The notes beneath the pieces were generated by a model. The model had not been told where the DNA came from. It was given only the letters and a program-made list of their open reading frames with translations, and did no database searches. From a virus (lineage: Duplodnaviria > Caudoviricetes): 64,000 nucleotides of DNA. Position numbers and translations under genes: made by a program. Location of the stretch: the IMG/VR virus record IMGVR_UViG_3300028591_003923, positions 1-64,000 of that record. The stretch is one strand, 5' to 3'. Of this stretch, positions 28,417-49,005 are shown piece by piece; positions within the stretch are counted from its first letter, which is position 1, and each line of letters opens with the position of its first letter.

Positions 28417-28713
28417 TTAATTTACATTTATCTCGGTTGTATACGCCTTCCAATCATGTGCCGGGGTTATTACTGTTTCACCATCCATAGGTGGCCATTC
28501 AGGTGGCCAAGCGGTTGTCGTTGCTTTAACTGTTCTTATTGGCGCATCTTTAAATGCCCAGCATGGACATACACTTGTAGTCGGACTCAGCGCGCGGCCA
28601 CACTTTGGACAAACCCATCCATAAACCGTTGGTCCAACCTGCACAAAGTCATCGTTATCCACGGTTATTCTTTTCTTCTCTGCTGATTCCATCAAATTTT
28701 TCTCCTGTTTCAT
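28417..28713 (-). CDS. Hypothetical protein with GWVCPKCG zinc motif
   Basis: GWVCPKCGRALSP..CPC. Confidence 0.6.
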   Translation of the reverse strand: MKQEKNLMESAEKKRITVDNDDFVQVGPTVYGWVCPKCGRALSPTTSVCPCWAFKDAPIRTVKATTTAWPPEWPPMDGETVITPAHDWKAYTTEINVN

Positions 28714-28861
28714 CTAAACGGTAGCCAGCCTTTTCGTAGGCTATTGCCGCCATTTCAATTCCGTCTTCTATTCCTGCGTTCATACCGCAGCGCCAACCCA
28801 CCGCAAAGGAGCCAAGGATTGTCGCTGCGACGAGTACATATTCAAATATATTAATTGTCAT
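28655..28861 (-). CDS. Small membrane protein
   Basis: N-terminal hydrophobic helix; overlaps the ligase stop. Confidence 0.55.
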   Translation of the reverse strand: MTINIFEYVLVAATILGSFAVGWRCGMNAGIEDGIEMAAIAYEKAGYRLDETGEKFDGISREEKNNRG

Positions 28862-29978
28862 AAATTTTCTCCCATGTGCAGTCAGTTAGTTCTATGTCGT
28901 CACGCCAATTACAGAATTTCGGGTGACGTACACCGCCAGTATCCATAATTTCCATGGCTGTTATTGTGCATACACGACCTACATAGTCTTTCCAATGTTC
29001 TTTGACTTCATCGGTTATACCACTAAGGTTGCCAATTTCTACTAACTGACCATCTTTATATACGCCGAGTTGAAGCGAACCTGCCCAACCATAGAACCAG
29101 TTTTTCGTTACTGGAACCAACGGCGCGCCATCTGCGTAAGACAAGTAAATATTAGCATTGTATTTATCACTATATGCAGCTGAAGTTATCTTCTCGTTGT
29201 TTAAAATATCAAACCAGTAAGGCCATGACTCTATTTCTTTTCCTGTGTATTCTTTGCTAGGTGGATTCGCTCCCACTACGATACAATCAATTGTTTCTTG
29301 GAGTTCTTTCTTCACTTTAAGCGTGTCCTTGCTCGGTCTTTTGCCTGGTTGATACAGCGCGCCTTCACGTGTAATAACAACACCTTCGTATCCATCTGCA
29401 AGTAAACTCTGTAACTGATTCCAAAGTTCCTGTCCTCTATAATATTTCGCCCATTCTACATTTTCAAACGGATAAGCCTTCCAGAATCCATCAAGTGATT
29501 CAAATCTTTCTCCTGCTGGTACGTCTAACCAAGACATATTATCCCAAGCAAGCACATCAAATATGTAATAGTGAAGTGGCTCTTTTTCTTGTCTTTTAAT
29601 TGCTTTTTCTCTAAGACAATTCATAATTGAAGTAGTTGATTTTGCTTGTTCATTTGATGGAAGGTAAAGCTCTCCAATGAAACATGTTCCTGGCGGCAGC
29701 TCCTTAAAGAACGAATCAAACTGTGGTACCCAATGTATCTTATCAAGGTATTCACCACTTACACTTTTACTACGTCCGCGCAAACACATATTACCGTCTT
29801 CATCTTTGCAGAATAGATAAAATGCGCCATCTCTTTTCTGCGCACCAAGCCATTCGCCGCTAAAAATACGCTGATTTACCGTAGTTTTTTTCTTGTCTAT
29901 ATCCCATGAGTTAGGGAAATTCCAGTATTTCATAATCGAGAGATTAAAAAAGTCTATTCCGTCTATATACCCTTTCAT
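28851..29978 (-). CDS. lig: ATP-dependent DNA ligase
   Basis: Motifs KRDG, GELY, FDVL, EGVV, LKVK and OB-fold RHP. Confidence 0.9.
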   Translation of the reverse strand: MKGYIDGIDFFNLSIMKYWNFPNSWDIDKKKTTVNQRIFSGEWLGAQKRDGAFYLFCKDEDGNMCLRGRSKSVSGEYLDKIHWVPQFDSFFKELPPGTCFIGELYLPSNEQAKSTTSIMNCLREKAIKRQEKEPLHYYIFDVLAWDNMSWLDVPAGERFESLDGFWKAYPFENVEWAKYYRGQELWNQLQSLLADGYEGVVITREGALYQPGKRPSKDTLKVKKELQETIDCIVVGANPPSKEYTGKEIESWPYWFDILNNEKITSAAYSDKYNANIYLSYADGAPLVPVTKNWFYGWAGSLQLGVYKDGQLVEIGNLSGITDEVKEHWKDYVGRVCTITAMEIMDTGGVRHPKFCNWRDDIELTDCTWEKIYDN

Positions 29979-34279: not shown

Positions 34280-34939
34280 ACAATTTCATAAATAAATATA
34301 CTACTTGAACTCAGTGTAGAGATGCTAAACTAGTATCGCTGAGGCGCAGGCTGACAGAGTTACCCAGGACTACGAAACAAGGATACTTGCGGATAGTTGG
34401 CTGTGGAAGCGGGGCGACCCGTGGAAAGAAGACCTGGAAGGTCAACGGCTGAAAGATGTACAGTGCGGCGCTTCGGTTATCGCAGATAAAGGTAGCATGT
34501 GGGTCGGGGATGTAATAGACGCTCCTGTGGAGAAGAATCCAAGTTAGGGACTTAGCTGGTGACTGCGTTCACACCTTGGAAATACCAATAAATTCCTTTG
34601 CCGTGAAGCGGTGAGAACCGTGTATAAGACCTGCGTGTCGCGTACGAGTAGCACAAATGGCAAGACTTGGACAGAAGGAAAATTGTACAAGTGTAATAGG
34701 TTATACACTCTTATTCTAATCCGTACAGTGTGTGAAAGTTAAAGGTAGACATTCCTTTATGGACTAATGGCTCTGCGGAGTAGTCGCTAGGGAACGGCGG
34801 CAGTAACAGTAGTTCCTGGTTATTGAGGACGGGACTTGCAACCCCGTACATGGCAGTAACTATCCATTGACTGAATATATCTGAAGGTAGCTAGAAGTAA
34901 GATGAAAGTCTCTTGTTGTATATTTATTTATGAAATTGT
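34280..34939 (+). ncRNA. Large structured RNA, about 660 nt, ROOL-like
   Basis: Perfect 22-bp closing helix (34280-34301 with 34918-34939), no ORF; size and phage/tRNA context fit ROOL. Family call is from recollection only. Confidence 0.6.
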
Positions 34940-37884: not shown

Positions 37885-38181
37885 ATGGTTACTTTAAAAG
37901 ATACGTTTGAGGAAGTCGGTTCAGAAGAGTATGGACCGTGGCAGTATAAGGCTGTTGTTTACGACGAAGACGAGAAAGAGCGGAGAATTCATAAAGGAAT
38001 TTGTTTTGGTACAGACTATGCTTCAGCCGCAAAGAAAGTAGAGTCGTATTTTCAGACGGATTTAATAAGTTTAACGCTTTACCCACTTGAACCGTTTCCG
38101 ATTTATGATTTTACAGATGCATATGAATCTGAGTGGGATTTATTTACTATAACTACATGTGATAAACAAAATAAATTTTGA
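37885..38181 (+). CDS. Hypothetical protein
   Basis: aaggag RBS and own promoter. Confidence 0.6.
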   Translation: MVTLKDTFEEVGSEEYGPWQYKAVVYDEDEKERRIHKGICFGTDYASAAKKVESYFQTDLISLTLYPLEPFPIYDFTDAYESEWDLFTITTCDKQNKF

Positions 38182-38206
38182 CTAAATAATAAATTTTTGA
38201 TATAAT
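38178..38206 (+). promoter_or_regulatory. sigma-A promoter of the tRNA/ncRNA operon
   Basis: TTGACT-17-TATAAT. Confidence 0.8.
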
Positions 38207-38593: not shown

Positions 38594-38670
38594 GCGGAAT
38601 TAGCTCAGTTGGGATGAGCGCTAGTCTTACAAACTAGAGGTCACTGGTTCGATCCCAGTATTCCGTACCA
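38594..38670 (+). tRNA. tRNA-Val(UAC)
   Basis: ctagt-ct-TAC-aa-actag; ttcgatc T-loop; CCA. Confidence 0.92.
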
Positions 38671-38780
38671 TTCAGGTCGGCAGCCTACCTTGTCCGCGGA
38701 ATTTAAAAAGACGCTGCTGCTTTGTAAGTACAATGCTAAAAACTTTCTGTTTGGACCTTGGCGTCAAAGGTCCCATATGT

Positions 38781-38857
38781 GGCGGCATAGTGCAGTCGGT
38801 TAACACGTCAGCTTTTCATGCTGAAGATGCGCGGTTCGAATCCGCGTGCCGTTACCA
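38781..38857 (+). tRNA. tRNA-Glu(UUC)
   Basis: tcagc-tt-TTC-at-gctga; ttcgaat; CCA. Confidence 0.92.
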
Positions 38858-39079
38858 CAAGGAAGCAGGGTTCGTCCCCTTAAAACGCTCGCCGCTAAAG
38901 GAGCCAGATGATGCTGTGGGAACCTTGGGCATTGGAAGAATGTAAACTGTTTAAGGGCACGTGAAAGATAAATAATAAGGCGTTATAGTAGTGAGAATAG
39001 GGAATTGCGGAGCCTTATACGAAGAACGAAGGTAGCTACTAAGTACCCGTCGTGCGAGGTACTAACAGTTTATATATAT

Positions 39080-39155
39080 GGGTTGATAGCTCAGTTGGTA
39101 GAGCGCCGCACTGTTAATGCGGATGTCCTAGGTTCAAGTCCTAGTCTTCCCGCCA
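39080..39155 (+). tRNA. tRNA-Asn(GUU)
   Basis: ccgca-ct-GTT-aa-tgcgg; CCA; two U.U mismatches in the acceptor stem. Confidence 0.88.
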
Positions 39156-39258
39156 CTGCTCATCGGCATACCCCTTTTAGAGGTGTGCTTATGGTCGGGA
39201 TGGAGACCTAAAACCCATTCCAATTGGTCGGAGCGGAGACCTAAAACCCGCTCAATAT

Positions 39259-39334
39259 GTCTCGGTCGTTCAACGGTTTAGGATGATAGCCTGTCACGCT
39301 ATTGATTGGAGTTCGATTCTCCATCGAGACGCCA
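39259..39334 (+). tRNA. tRNA-Asp(GUC)
   Basis: atagc-ct-GTC-ac-gctat; G73; CCA. Confidence 0.9.
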
Positions 39335-39337
39335 TAT

Positions 39338-39408
39338 GTCCACATAACTCAATGGTAGAGAAACGCCAGTTAACGGCGGATATAAGGGTTCAAGTCCCTT
39401 TGTGGGCA
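39338..39408 (+). tRNA. Aberrant tRNA; central loop triplet UUA, no U33, no CCA
   Basis: Acceptor gtccaca/tgtgggc, anticodon arm acgcc-agTTAac-ggcgg, T-arm aaggg-ttcaagt-ccctt. Confidence 0.6.
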
Positions 39409-39619
39409 AGCAGAAGATACTGCTTAATCAAATCGGAGGTATGGCAAGAGTATCAGAGTCCTCGTTTAAGAAAATTCATACTCATTTTCTCATACCTGCA
39501 GCAAAACGGGGTTACGCAGATGTGCGGTTGGCCGACCTTAAGGCACGGTTTATAAACCTATTATTTCCTCCAGTTCGGTAGCATCGTCGCGGAGGTAAAC
39601 CTAAGCTACCAATTTATTT

Positions 39620-39693
39620 GCGCCGCGAGCCTGACGGACGGGCGACGGACCGCAACTCCGTGAAACTTGGTTCGACTCCAAGGTGGCGCTCCA
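39620..39693 (+). tRNA. tRNA-Cys(GCA)
   Basis: acgga-cc-GCA-ac-tccgt; U73; CCA. Confidence 0.85.
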
Positions 39694-39713
39694 GTTAAAG
39701 AAAGGATAAACTA

Positions 39714-39992
39714 ATGGCTCAGTTGTTTAAAGTAGAAGAATGGCAAGGTGGTTCAGGCTTATGGTGGGTAGCTGATACGCACACATGGACTGGCTGGCGC
39801 GCCATAGCGGAAGACTTAGACGTTGACCGCAATGGTTTAATAGAGTTGCTTAGAACAAAGTATGGAGCTACGGTTTACGATGAAAAGAAATTCTTTTTCT
39901 TTTTTGAGAAATATAAAAATGCACATCAGTTTAAACTTGATGTGAATAGAATTGCTAGACATAAACAGTTAATGGTAGAAAAGCAATTTTGA
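39714..39992 (+). CDS. Hypothetical protein inside the tRNA cluster
   Basis: aaagga RBS; 92 aa. Confidence 0.7.
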   Translation: MAQLFKVEEWQGGSGLWWVADTHTWTGWRAIAEDLDVDRNGLIELLRTKYGATVYDEKKFFFFFEKYKNAHQFKLDVNRIARHKQLMVEKQF

Positions 39993-39995
39993 CGT

Positions 39996-40069
39996 CGCAG
40001 GGTGCAACTAAAGGTAGGTTGGCGTGGCTCATAACCACGATCGTGCAGGTTCGACTCCTGTCCCTGCAA
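39996..40069 (+). tRNA. tRNA-Met(CAU), initiator-like
   Basis: C1:A72 mismatch; cgtgg-ct-CAT-aa-ccacg; no encoded CCA. Confidence 0.85.
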
Positions 40070-40416
40070 TTTAAAGGTCGAAAACCTACGACCACCGTTA
40101 ACACGGATTCATCTACTAAACTACCACCGGCACATCAGATAAGTATGTGATATGTGGCTTGCGGAAAACGGGATATAAAGAAGCGAAGTAAGTAGATTCC
40201 TTTCTTATGGAGGAACTGTTAATGCAAAAAATTTGGGAAACGAATATCAAATGGATGCAGAAAATTGACGACTTATTAGGCCAAGCCGATGAATCAAACA
40301 AATACACTGAACTGCTCGCGCAGCTTAGTCAATATCTATGGGATTCTGCAGACCAACTTAGACATAAAGAAGTTGAAATAGACCAATTAATTCAAACACT
40401 TTCAAAGCTTCCTTAA

Positions 40417-40493
40417 GGGGGTATAACGGTTTCGAGCGGCGTTAAGTCCGAAGTGACCTCGTCGTGAAGTGGGTTCGACTCCCACTACTTCCA
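40417..40493 (+). ncRNA. Minimal tmRNA-like RNA (tRNA-like domain only)
   Basis: 5' GGGGGTATAACGGTTTCGA; acceptor with G3.U70 and A73; short P2 gcggcg/cgtcgt; T-arm gtggg-ttcgact-cccac. Confidence 0.7.
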
Positions 40494-40927
40494 TTGTCAG
40501 TGGTGTAACGTATGCGGCGCCCGCGCTAAATACGTAGGGATTATCTTATGGGAAGGGATAAGATGGGCGCAGTTGACTTTAAACAGTCGGTAGGTTGTGA
40601 CGAATAGGAACTGCGTAAGTCGTCGGAGAGGTCCTGCCTTAGTGGACGATTTATAAGTCCGCACGTTGGATTGTTCCCGCAGCAAGAGGTAGACGACCCA
40701 TCTACAACTTTTCCGTGCGGTTATTGAACTGTAATAAAGGCTTGGGTAAGAGGACCCTGTAAGTAGTTGATAGTGGAACAATAACCTTTGATTTAATGAG
40801 TTAACTTAAGTTAGCTTTAGATGGGAGTCTTGAACAGGCTATTAGACTTAATACTCGGCCGTGGAGCGCGCATTACAAATCCCATCTTTTATGCGCGAGT
40901 GGTGGAATAGGCAGACACGAGGGACTT

Positions 40928-41693
40928 AAGTAATTTGAGCACTTGGGTTGGAAACTCCTAAGTGAATGCTGGCTAACTCGGAAGAAACCCCAATGGGGCG
41001 ATTCCGAACTAAATTTTTCCTTTTAGGAATACAAAAGGTAGAGCTTCCCTCTAGTTTTCCTACTTATATATAGAAAGGGAAAATGGAGGAACAAAAATGA
41101 AACAGTATACTAAAGAATGGTTAAGTGAATTATGTGCTGAAAGTTATTCGTATTCAGAAGTTTTAAGAAAGGCGGGTCGCAAGCCTGGCGGCGGTGCTAA
41201 TGAAACTTTAAAGAAAAAAATCTTAGAATATGGAATTGATACTTCGCATTTTACTGGACAGGCATGGACAAAAGCTCCAACTTATACGGCGCGGCCTGGT
41301 AGTAAAGAAAAATATTCACTTGAAGAAGTATTTAAAGAGCATAGTACCGTTTCACAAAAAGTATTGCGTGGTTATGTAGAAAGACATAATGTAATACCTT
41401 ATAAATGTGCAATTTGTGGATGTGATGGTAACTGGCAAGGTAGTACTATTGCTTTAGAACTTGACCATATTGATGGCAATAATACCAATGACGTAGTATC
41501 TAATTTACGTTATTTGTGTCCTAATTGCCATGCATTAACTGCAACATACCGTGGTAGAAATAAAGGGAAAATAAATGCGTAGAGACTATACACCAGCCTC
41601 CTAAGGATTGTGGCTTCAAGCGGCCGCAATCTACGGAGAAGAAATAGTCCAGACCACAACATTTTTATGGCTATGGTAACATAGTGTGGTAAG
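40928..41693 (+). mobile_element. Group I intron after U34 of tRNA-Leu(UAA)
   Basis: Exon ends in U and intron ends in G; P3 gctgg/ccagc; P7 gacta/tagtc (R agagactata, S gaaatagtcc). Confidence 0.88.
41097..41582 (+). CDS. Intron-encoded HNH homing endonuclease
   Basis: CAICG..LELDHIDGNN..NLRYLCPNCH. Confidence 0.9.
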   Translation: MKQYTKEWLSELCAESYSYSEVLRKAGRKPGGGANETLKKKILEYGIDTSHFTGQAWTKAPTYTARPGSKEKYSLEEVFKEHSTVSQKVLRGYVERHNVIPYKCAICGCDGNWQGSTIALELDHIDGNNTNDVVSNLRYLCPNCHALTATYRGRNKGKINA

Positions 41694-41858
41694 AAAATCC
41701 CTTGGCCGTTAGGTCGTGAGGGTTCAAGTCCCTCCTTGCGCACCACATATAGGGAGTAGAGTAACGGCGCCCCTTCTAATCCATATGATTTGCCTAATAT
41801 GGAAAAGAAAAGAATTGGGATATGGCAATTATCTAATAATTCACACCGCGAATCCCCT

Positions 41859-41932
41859 ATCAGCTTGGTGTAACGATAGCACAGCAGTCTCCAAAACTGC
41901 GAGTCAGGGTTTGAATCCTTGGGCTGGTGCCA
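41859..41932 (+). tRNA. tRNA-Trp(CCA)
   Basis: gcagt-ct-CCA-aa-actgc; CCA end. Confidence 0.88.
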
Positions 41933-42136
41933 TCTACCCCAACAAGTTTATTCCATACTTAGTTGGTAAAAGAAGAGTAAGGAATACGTGTCCTACCGGT
42001 CGTTAATGTTGTGTTTACGGTGAGAACGTGTGTAGGGAAAACCGTTATATAGGATATGCAATACGCGTCCTAGGGTAAATAGGTATATCCTTCCGTAAAG
42101 TCGGACGTTGGCGCTCTACGATAGTGAGTGACATCA

Positions 42137-42211
42137 CGGAGTATGGCGCAGTTTGGCTAGCGCGTTTGCTTTGGGAGCAAAATGCCGTAGGTTCAAATCC
42201 TACTACTCCGA
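42137..42211 (+). tRNA. tRNA-Pro(UGG)
   Basis: tttgc-tt-TGG-ga-gcaaa; acceptor cggagta/tactccg. Confidence 0.9.
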
Positions 42212-42216
42212 CTTGC

Positions 42217-42289
42217 GCGCCATTAACTCAGTTGGAAGAGTAACGCACTTTTAATGCGTGAGGCCGCAGTTCGAGTCTGCTATGGCGCA
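42217..42289 (+). tRNA. tRNA-Lys(UUU)
   Basis: acgca-ct-TTT-aa-tgcgt; acceptor gcgccat/atggcgc. Confidence 0.88.
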
Positions 42290-47299: not shown

Positions 47300-47797
47300 A
47301 TGTCACAGTATTTAGAGTTTTATATTAGACATAACGATGATTATCTTCCAATTGCATCATATTGCGGTAGTTCCGCATATATGGAAATGTTTGATGATTA
47401 TGTTCCAAGTTATAGTGGACTTCGTACGGTCACTGAATCAATGCTGAGTTCGGTGCGCGCGGATGTTCAGCAGAAAATTAAGGAGAATGAACAGTGCATT
47501 AAAAGAGCTGAGAAACTGAAACAGGATATTCTCCAGGCTAATAACTCAATGGAAGAGAAAGTTGAATATATGGCAGGAGAAGACCAGGCTATAGAAGAAA
47601 CGGAAGATGAAAATAGGGCACTTGATAGTGTAGACCACTTCATTGATTTCCTTTATAATATACTTGAAGAAGCTGAATTCGGTGAGCATGAGGGAATACA
47701 GAAAGATAAGTATCTCTATGCGGGTGTAGAACCTGCGATTTGTAAAGACTACGATGAAATGACTCCAGAAGAAGTAAAGGAGGCGCGCGGATGGTAA
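47300..47797 (+). CDS. Hypothetical coiled-coil protein
   Basis: aaggag RBS; own promoter. Confidence 0.7.
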   Translation: MSQYLEFYIRHNDDYLPIASYCGSSAYMEMFDDYVPSYSGLRTVTESMLSSVRADVQQKIKENEQCIKRAEKLKQDILQANNSMEEKVEYMAGEDQAIEETEDENRALDSVDHFIDFLYNILEEAEFGEHEGIQKDKYLYAGVEPAICKDYDEMTPEEVKEARGW

Positions 47798-49005
47798 TAA
47801 ATAAAATGGACATGCACAAGAAACGTCAACGTGCACTCGCCCATGTAGAAAAAATAGCATGGATACGTCCAATAGAGGGCGCCGACAACATAGAACTTGT
47901 CGGTGTTCTTGGTTGGGTATGTATTGCTAAAATAGGTGAGTTTAAAGTTGGTGACTGGTGCGTTTATATTGAGATAGATTCTAAAGTGCCTGAAAAAGAG
48001 TGGTCTGAGTTTCTGCGCCCGAAGCACTTTAAGATTAAGACAATGAAGCTTGGTAAGTTTAAAGTTATCAGCCAGGGTATAGCACTGCCGCTCTCTACGT
48101 TTGACATAGACATACCGCAGGAAGAGGGTAAAGACGTTACGAAGCTGCTTGGGGTTAAGTATTCTGTAAGGGAAGATAACTTTAGAAAATCAGAAATAGA
48201 TAAGTATAAAGCTATGGCGCAGCGTAGACCTGACGTGTTCAAAAAACCGTGGGCGCGCAGAATGATGAAGAACCCAATTGGAAAACGTATCATGTTTTTA
48301 CTCTATGGTAAGAAACGTGATGACCAGAAAAAGTTTCCAAAGAAGTTCCAGTTCGTGCATCCGACCGATGAAGAAAGAATAGAGAACATGCCATGGATTC
48401 TTGATGACCGCGATGCTCGTTACATTAAAACAACGAAAATAGACGGTACTTCAACTACGTTCATTCTTGAAAAGAAACTGTTCGGTTACGAATTCTATGT
48501 GCTCTCGCGCAATGTACGTCAGTTCACACCAGAACAGGGCAACTATCATTCACAAGATGAAAATGTGTATTGGGAAGTTGCAGAAAAATATAACGTAAAG
48601 GATTTCCTTATGAACTTTATAAAAGGCGGTAACTACCGTTATGTAGCTCTGCAAGGAGAAACCTATGGTTGCACTGAAAAAGGTGTAAAAATACAGGGCG
48701 ACCCGCATCACATTGGTGAACTTAGATTCGCAGCCTTCAACCTCATTGATTCTAAAATTGGACGTTGGGATTCGGTAGAAGGGCGCAAATGGTGTTCTTC
48801 GTTTGGAATACCTTGGGTGCCAATTGTAGATACGAACTGCCAGGTTGAATCAGACATGGAAGCTTTCAAACTTACTGCCGATGGACCATGTGAAATACCA
48901 GGTTCAACGGGGCTGCGCGAAGGCTATGTTTATAGGAAAGTTGGTGACCCTAACTTTTCGTTTAAGAACGTGTCAAGGAAATATTTACTGAAACATGGAC
49001 AGTAG
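47791..49005 (+). CDS. RNA ligase (DRB0094-like family)
   Basis: N-terminal OB fold IEGADNIE..YIEIDS..SQGI; TDEERI, KIDGTS, QGE, FAAFN, EGYV, SFKNVS. Confidence 0.88.
   Translation: MVINKMDMHKKRQRALAHVEKIAWIRPIEGADNIELVGVLGWVCIAKIGEFKVGDWCVYIEIDSKVPEKEWSEFLRPKHFKIKTMKLGKFKVISQGIALPLSTFDIDIPQEEGKDVTKLLGVKYSVREDNFRKSEIDKYKAMAQRRPDVFKKPWARRMMKNPIGKRIMFLLYGKKRDDQKKFPKKFQFVHPTDEERIENMPWILDDRDARYIKTTKIDGTSTTFILEKKLFGYEFYVLSRNVRQFTPEQGNYHSQDENVYWEVAEKYNVKDFLMNFIKGGNYRYVALQGETYGCTEKGVKIQGDPHHIGELRFAAFNLIDSKIGRWDSVEGRKWCSSFGIPWVPIVDTNCQVESDMEAFKLTADGPCEIPGSTGLREGYVYRKVGDPNFSFKNVSRKYLLKHGQ

Follow-up and report, generated by a model that had tools for sequence, protein, structure and literature searches.

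Bacteria rescue stalled ribosomes mainly by trans-translation, a pathway that antibiotic discovery also targets. Its RNA, tmRNA, is known in a form without the tag-encoding part: Hudson, Lau and Williams (PMC4131195) list mycobacteriophage DS6A as carrying a 'TLD only' tmRNA, and a 2025 database paper (PMC11915505) repeats that case and also names CDS-less tmRNAs from mitochondria and two plastids. As cited in both sources, Mao et al. 2009 reported that a TLD-like molecule strongly inhibits tmRNA in E. coli, perhaps by titrating SmpB, and the account in PMC4131195 adds that this inhibitor did not require chargeability. The idea that the DS6A RNA is an SmpB decoy is discussed in the two papers (PMC4131195, PMC11915505), and the organellar CDS-less tmRNAs are argued in the latter still to help with incomplete mRNAs, because they co-occur with SmpB. 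Both the phage precedent and the decoy hypothesis are already published, and the concept is not new. A preliminary description of the locus studied here had treated its RNA as unprecedented, which does not hold given these passages of PMC4131195 and PMC11915505, and the two functions that it proposed, SmpB decoy and tag-less rescue, are the same two as in this literature. In the literature searched, no phage example beyond DS6A is described.

The gene examined here is 77 nt long and lies on the + strand at 40417-40493 of the window, a 64,000-nt stretch that belongs to a 129.5-kb phage record from sheep gut. Judged from its sequence, it is a tag-less tmRNA of the DS6A type, and this identity is secure. 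Its parts are as follows, where R1 denotes a covariance model built from a 76-sequence alignment.

40417-40493, + strand: whole tag-less mini-tmRNA gene (tRNA-like domain only), 77 nt; 67.6 bits (E 3e-14) with R1, whose alignment has this copy as its first sequence; 39.4 bits with RF00023; motif expected 0.00 times by chance
40417-40423, + strand: acceptor stem, 5' strand GGGGGUA, partner 40486-40492; G3 is 40419
40424-40435, + strand: D-arm replacement UAACGGUUUCGA, without D stem; a tmRNA-type GGNUUCGA(C) segment that also opens five real tmRNAs
40436-40441, + strand: P2 helix, 5' strand GCGGCG, partner 40460-40465
40442-40459, + strand: 18-nt P2 cap UUAAGUCCGAAGUGACCU, made up of UUAA, the hairpin GUC-CGAAGU-GAC and CU
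40446-40448 with 40455-40457, + strand: small hairpin GUC/GAC inside the P2 cap, read from the sequence
40460-40465, + strand: P2 helix, 3' strand CGUCGU, partner of 40436-40441
40466-40468, + strand: linker GAA; the consensus of the family and of tmRNA is GAC
40469-40485, + strand: T arm GUGGG-UUCGACU-CCCAC; the local RF00023 match has the same span
40486-40492, + strand: acceptor stem, 3' strand UACUUCC; U70 is 40490 and U69 is 40489
40493, + strand: discriminator A73, an alanine identity element

The acceptor stem consists of seven pairs (G1-C72, G2-C71, G3.U70, G4.U69, G5-C68, U6-A67 and A7-U66) and P2 of six, two of which are G.U. The segment at 40424-40436 reads UAAC-GGUUUCGA-G, its final G forming a G.U pair with 40465, and UGAA stands before the T arm where GGAC is expected. 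TTG follows directly after A73, so CCA is not encoded; it is encoded in seven neighbouring tRNAs (Val, Glu, Asn, Asp, Cys, Trp and Leu). With the P2 strands only 18 nt apart, the RNA has no resume codon, tag frame, stop codon or pseudoknots. The elements named in the preliminary description (a tmRNA-type start without a D-stem, G3.U70, A73, P2, linker and T-arm) all lie where it had placed them, and reading the sequence bears out the unpermuted order that it gave. Its 6-bp P2 and 18-nt loop are right in their dimensions, but the loop is not plain, having the small conserved hairpin GUC/GAC inside. The unencoded CCA and the G4.U69 wobble are two more details that it had not mentioned. The identity that it drew from these parts is supported: a tmRNA without an mRNA-like domain, cut down to the tRNA-like part, in which the alanine elements are intact. 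The defining motif occurs once in the window against 0.00 expected from 100 shuffles, and a chance origin is excluded.

Standard tools give the gene little notice. ARAGORN calls nine tRNAs around the mini-tmRNA and none at 40417-40493. At gathering score, Rfam reports the tRNAs, together with a ROOL RNA, and has neither an RF00023 nor an RF00005 call at this place. In a permissive Rfam scan, the sole match is the T arm at 40469-40485, a local tmRNA match. The preliminary description had pointed to ARAGORN and Infernal tmRNA models as checks, and the outcome is divided: ARAGORN is silent and RF00023 stays below its gathering score of 47, yet a search of the whole record with RF00023 aligns the RNA end to end (model positions 1-374, across a deletion of the middle) at 39.4 bits, a score that is not discriminating alone, since this mode gives ordinary tRNAs up to about 38 bits. 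The folding energy is not lower than that of shuffles (z -0.14), and blastn of the 77 nt against cultured phages matches only the T arms of tRNAs. Compared with the defining features of each class, the RNA has those of a tmRNA tRNA-like domain, namely the acceptor with G3.U70 and A73, the GGNUUCGAC segment without a D stem, P2, and a T arm with a GUUCRANUC-type loop. It also has those of a DS6A-type TLD-only tmRNA, in that the domain is unpermuted, the P2 cap is short, the length is in the range of about 60-90 nt and the phage is without SmpB. Because the mRNA-like domain is absent, and with a score below 47 bits, we do not file it as a standard tmRNA (RF00023), and it is no tRNA of the RF00005 kind, the D stem and 7-nt anticodon loop being absent.

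The link to DS6A can be made independently of our search. R1 finds one match in DS6A, at 28478-28557, with 60 bits and an E-value of 2.4e-12; since DS6A is absent from the R1 training set and fails the search motif owing to GGUGGUCGA, this match is an independent link. The DS6A RNA (JN698994.1, tmID 11587) shares with the window copy a 7-bp acceptor with G3.U70, a D-arm replacement, a GAC-type linker, the T arm and A73. Its P2 has 7 bp and is capped by an A-rich internal loop and a small hairpin with a AAAACCGCACGCGG cap, in the same layout as here, and neither phage encodes SmpB. Sequence likeness is confined to consensus positions: DS6A has GGUGGUCGA where the window copy has GGUUUCGA, and is 70% G+C. 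DS6A is a 60-kb temperate actinophage whose RNA gene stands alone between protein genes, whereas the present gene is part of a tRNA array, and its ruminant-gut phage has 129 kb. Unlike DS6A, the window copy has G4.U69 and a hairpin of the CC-RAAG-UG subtype.

Standard tmRNA (RF00023), represented by five real tmRNAs, resembles the RNA in the acceptor with G3.U70 and A73, the GGNUUCGAC segment, the start of P2a, the GGAC-type linker and the T arm. These five, of 360-372 nt, show GGTTTCGAC, GGATTCGAC and AGCTTCGAC at the place of the D-arm replacement and GGAC at the linker; the mini form, by contrast, misses about 290 nt, comprising the resume codon, tag frame, stop codon and PK1-PK4. The CDS-less tmRNAs of jakobid mitochondria and Mallomonadaceae plastids likewise consist of roughly the tRNA-like domain only, the plastid genes being about 65 bp, and are thought to act with SmpB without tagging, according to PMC11915505 (and Jacob et al. 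2004 as cited there). Compared here by their description in that paper, they differ in descending vertically from the organelle's own tmRNA and in having a dedicated imported SmpB, whereas the window gene is viral and must share host SmpB against a full host tmRNA. Phages are also known to carry full-length or two-piece tmRNAs (the Bxz1 group, Bacillus phage G and Melnitz-like marine phages), which are ssrA-type and often near tRNA genes; according to PMC4131195 and PMC9004378, these keep a tag reading frame, of which the window RNA has none.

The short form belongs to a large family of viral RNAs. The search motif combined the tmRNA 5' signature, a 22-52-nt gap, a T loop and a UCCA end, and was run on IMG/VR viral contigs; a second scan left the 3' end free, with neither U70 nor A73 imposed. 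The strict motif matched at least 120 viral stretches per scan, with 98 distinct sequences of 63-92 nt among the matches listed, and the two scans combined gave at least 150 viral loci, at least 131 of them non-redundant. The same motif found 30 stretches in 596 Gb of bacterial and archaeal genomes, most of them short contigs of metagenome bins from many phyla, so that against at least 120 in IMG/VR the family is strongly enriched on viral contigs. Among the matches listed, no member is more than 78% identical to the window copy. A tRNA gene lies within 500 nt in 30 of the 131 listed non-redundant loci. ARAGORN fails to see 128 of these 131 and miscalls two as tRNAs.

Covariation was assessed by aligning 76 sequences from the 74-81-nt class, of which the window copy is the first. 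Paired cells make up 88% of the alignment against 62% in shuffles, and the covariation score of 0.678 (0.176 in shuffles) is matched by none of 500 shuffles; shifting the partners by 1-3 columns lowers it to about 0.1-0.15. P2 is 94.7% paired with both-side changes at 7/7 pairs, and the T stem 100% paired with both-side changes at 4/5. A register shift of 1 nt accounts for the unpaired cells at acceptor pairs 5-7, which are an artefact: 19/94 members begin one base upstream of the GGGG anchor. The cap hairpin is only 57.5% paired in the automatic alignment. In most members the P2 cap has an A-rich stretch, a 3-4-bp hairpin and then an A. The window copy represents a subtype, N-CC-RAAG-UG-N', whose outer pair is U-A, G-C, A-U or C-G across members; its tandem wobble G3.U70/G4.U69 is rare, G4.U69 occurring in only 6 of the 76 aligned members. 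The covarying short form in phages that the preliminary description had proposed to look for is thus found.

Conservation has to be read against the search itself. Because the search patterns fixed G1-G4 (including G3), GGNUUCGA and the T loop, conservation of these positions is not independent evidence, and the D-arm replacement segment, invariant in the family, was likewise specified in the pattern. Absent from the pattern and yet at least 90% conserved are the A at 40444 and, nearly invariant, G50 and A51 of the linker. In the scan with a free 3' end, 94 of the 102 distinct matches listed have at least six of seven acceptor pairs, and among those 94 U70 is kept in all, A73 in 91, and CCA is encoded in 37.

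Other small RNAs lie close to this family. A class of 63-68 nt, shorter than the DS6A type, has as its P2 a plain 6-8-bp hairpin with a 4-5-nt loop (for example L024:842-904, L054:4019-4081 and L089:4468-4531); it was left out of R1 training and scores 53-68 bits with R1. A second kind of tRNA-like RNA on viral contigs, of about 69 nt (L002:1906-1974, L006:511-579, L011:10097-10165, L013:12-80 and L014:12896-12964), has a G3.U70 acceptor, an ACGGAUU-CGA-AAUCCGU hairpin replacing the D arm, a second small hairpin and a T arm. Its discriminator is G and its CCA is encoded; R1 gives it only 31-37 bits, and ARAGORN calls one example tRNA-Ser. Mini-tmRNAs also occur in cultured isolates, presumably in prophages: one in Terracoccus sp. 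273MFTsu3.1 (L193:1918-1995) and two 88-nt copies in the Microvirga lenta isolate SM9 (L165:2189-2276 and L170). A normal tmRNA of 360-372 nt (367 nt in Terracoccus sp. 273MFTsu3.1) accompanies the mini form in each of five bacterial genomes or bins, and its acceptor and T stems differ from those of the mini form. The mini forms have the universal TLD consensus in common and do not represent fresh copies of the local ssrA gene.

The stretch occurs in other ruminant-gut runs, and contigs from two further ruminant-gut studies bridge the short form (X5, 40161-40564; X7, 40221-40524), with 10-12 differences each. One low-depth goat-gut contig may connect 40197 to 40498, removing a 69-aa ORF and the RNA gene; we give it little weight because its shorter side has only 27 letters. 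The preliminary description had allowed for a private deletion in this phage. That explanation fails, and an assembly artefact is contradicted as well, on the strength of the large covarying phage family and the bridging contigs from two other studies. Close relatives of the phage were not found in phage collections, either by tblastn with the Dit protein or by a related-locus search with a 602-aa ORF, and blastn of 40200-40920 against cultured phages gave no match.

The neighbourhood of the gene is rich in structured RNAs, and the features relevant here are the following.

28851-29978, - strand: ATP-dependent DNA ligase
34285-34931, + strand: ROOL RNA matching the model over its full length with 255.8 bits (gathering score 99.1), about 5.5 kb ahead of the mini-tmRNA
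38178-38206, + strand: best promoter-like site upstream of the array, TTGACT-17-TATAAT with TG, 11/12 matches; a consensus match only
38594-42289, + strand: tRNA gene array holding the mini-tmRNA; nine tRNAs by ARAGORN and one more by Rfam, same strand throughout
39338-39408, + strand: tRNA found by Rfam (44.1 bits) and missed by ARAGORN, just after tRNA-Asp
40207-40416, + strand: 69-aa ORF preceded by a GGAGG ribosome-binding site, with a TAA stop directly before G1 of the mini-tmRNA
40895-41748, + strand: tRNA-Leu(UAA) split in the anticodon loop, exon ends ...GGGACTTAA / AATCCC...GCGCACCA
47791-49005, + strand: RNA ligase (phrog_968, 6.2e-51), about 5.5 kb downstream of the tRNA array

No terminator-like site was found on the + strand from the promoter-like site to 42500. 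The RNA ligase has matches of only about 28-30% identity, and DS6A has an RtcB-like RNA ligase. The insert in tRNA-Leu(UAA) gives a weak group I intron match (21 bits against a gathering score of 50) and holds an HNH endonuclease ORF of 161 aa (41097-41582, phrog_10822, 1.3e-51); a metatranscriptome contig connects 40908 to 41738 with 63 other letters between. We only infer a host in Bacillota, from the Dit-type tail protein, the ROOL RNA and the ruminant-gut source.

Potential partners of the RNA were sought on both of its sides and at other loci. The 69-aa ORF belongs to no Pfam or PHROG family and has no homolog at other mini-tmRNA loci; it is context, not a conserved partner. Clustering of 163 neighbour contexts in search of a conserved protein partner returned ordinary phage genes only (portal, terminase, protease, capsid, DnaB and lysins). 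In other phages the mini-tmRNA can lie among head genes (L110:538-2445, L087:4875-6071, L144:1491-2852 and L008:4580-6139), for example 330 nt past a prohead protease, 84 nt ahead of a major capsid gene, or near portal and large terminase genes. On the downstream side, 40494-40892 (+ strand) follows the mini-tmRNA directly and has no + strand ORF of at least 40 aa, no Rfam family and a folding z of -1.49. Metatranscriptome run X24 has a contig at 40498-40785 and none over 40417-40493; as contigs cannot show absence, this has no bearing on whether the mini-tmRNA is expressed. We rejected this adjoining piece of about 400 nt as the source of a tag frame or mRNA-like piece, there being no tag-like frame in 40494-40920. 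The rejection rests also on three other results: no stretch of more than 7 nt complements the P2 cap, no homolog stands beside other mini-tmRNAs, and related contigs break at 40497/40498. Related contigs join the piece from 40498 to 40094-40101, and the neighbourhood is therefore rearranged in relatives.

Our preferred reading, which we hold with moderate confidence and which extrapolates from the conserved parts of the molecule, is that the RNA would be charged with alanine and vie with host tmRNA for SmpB and stalled ribosomes, bypassing or blocking ssrA tagging. It would be transcribed together with the surrounding tRNA array, cleaved by RNase P at 40416/40417 and trimmed at its 3' end, and a host enzyme would add CCA. 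The RNase P cut would leave the mRNA of the 69-aa ORF with the stop codon as its very 3' end, a condition that might in turn promote stalling. Host AlaRS would charge the RNA with alanine via G3.U70 and A73, host SmpB would bind the GGUUUCGA/T-loop elbow and P2, and EF-Tu would deliver the complex to ribosomes stalled at mRNA ends. The ribosome might afterwards be freed, through drop-off and peptidyl-tRNA hydrolase or a release-type factor, or be held. Lacking a resume codon, tag frame and stop codon, the RNA would give the nascent chain at most alanine and no ssrA degron, and because the chain would go untagged the RNA would compete with host tmRNA and bypass or block tagging during infection.

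Several observations bear on this reading. SmpB (PF01668) is absent from the 129.5-kb record and from 36/36 other carrier records including DS6A, 14 of the 36 being at least 90% complete, and any SmpB partner must therefore be the host's. The retention of U70 and A73, which the free-3'-end scan did not impose, is the pattern expected from selection for alanylation (AlaRS recognition). Taken with a T arm that is fully maintained, it speaks for delivery to the ribosome over mere binding of a protein. Since the TLD-like inhibition needed no chargeability according to PMC4131195, the conservation of U70 and A73 would fit a role that involves entering the ribosome better than that of a pure sponge. 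Counted on the other side are the rare tandem wobble, the unencoded CCA, the GAA linker, the sub-gathering RF00023 score and the ordinary folding energy, and blocking ribosome rescue could hurt the phage too.

The same parts could serve a productive role, which we consider conceivable but rather unlikely: charged and together with host SmpB, the RNA would free ribosomes on broken mRNAs, for example after the action of host nuclease defences, and so add rescue capacity without tagging. A role of this kind has been suggested for CDS-less tmRNAs in jakobid mitochondria and Mallomonadaceae plastids, which are argued to be useful with incomplete mRNAs (PMC11915505). The strict AlaRS identity elements and the perfectly paired T arm argue for charging and for reaching the ribosome, the gene often lies in other phages among highly expressed head genes (portal, terminase, prohead protease and capsid), and an RNA ligase is near the array in the window phage. 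Release would, however, require another factor in the absence of a stop codon, with no conserved partner among the 163 contexts; capacity would stay limited by host SmpB, none being supplied by the phage; and a TLD-like molecule is reported to be inhibitory to tmRNA in E. coli (PMC4131195). Improbable in our estimate is that the RNA does not act on trans-translation but is a decoy or a target of host defence proteins recognising tmRNA-like RNA. Possible candidates would be the SmpB-like OB-fold domains of type II and III-A CoCoNuT restriction systems, for which PMC11090510 describes SmpB-like domains and predicts tmRNA binding, or nucleases acting on tmRNA or tRNA acceptor ends. This would suit the viral enrichment (at least 120 IMG/VR matches against 30 in 596 Gb of genomes) and a phage region rich in tRNA-type RNAs with an RNA ligase besides, but a pure protein decoy leaves the conservation of U70, A73 and CCA unexplained, and PMC11090510 gives no experimental link between CoCoNuTs and phage RNAs.

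Two further explanations deny the RNA a tmRNA-like function altogether, and the data contradict both. That it is a remnant without function, be it a decayed tmRNA gene, an artefact of assembly or the attP fragment of an ssrA-integrating phage, is very improbable. The RF00023 score below gathering, the silence of ARAGORN and the goat-gut contig that may skip 40198-40497, with its shorter side of 27 letters, would fit a remnant; both gene ends are nevertheless present and joined by a covarying helix, where an attP fragment would hold only the 3' part, and the same architecture recurs in at least 131 non-redundant viral loci and in DS6A. The acceptor and T stems of mini forms are, moreover, unlike those of the tmRNA in the same genome, and the short form stands on contigs from two further studies. 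Hardly credible at all is an aberrant, D-armless decoding tRNA reading a codon through the P2 loop. The gene does lie in a same-strand tRNA array, and ARAGORN does miscall 2 of the 131 listed members as tRNAs, but a 5-bp stem with a 7-nt anticodon loop is missing, the cap having 18 nt here and 4-5 nt in the 63-65-nt class, RF00005 makes no call at gathering score, and GGNUUCGA is a tmRNA signature.

Competition with host tmRNA is the reading that we favour. If it is true, this RNA would be a natural competitor of tmRNA, and such a phage product could be used directly to probe and inhibit trans-translation. The Terracoccus and Microvirga carriers of mini-tmRNAs could serve as laboratory systems. 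One more member would not surprise a specialist who knows DS6A; the family, with at least 131 non-redundant loci, is far larger than the searched literature, with DS6A only, suggests. As 128 of the 131 listed loci are invisible to ARAGORN, phage annotation systematically misses this class of genes. In the sheep-gut phage, the mini-tmRNA adds to a dense block of structured RNAs (ROOL, tRNAs and an intron-bearing tRNA) that probably acts on the host translation apparatus. More tentatively, the family may be a widespread and largely unannotated phage device, an alanine-charged RNA that would seize host SmpB and stalled ribosomes and thereby spare proteins synthesised during infection from ssrA tagging, and that might also be a ligand or decoy of SmpB-like defence domains such as those of CoCoNuTs, with the A-rich loop and cap hairpin as a second docking site.
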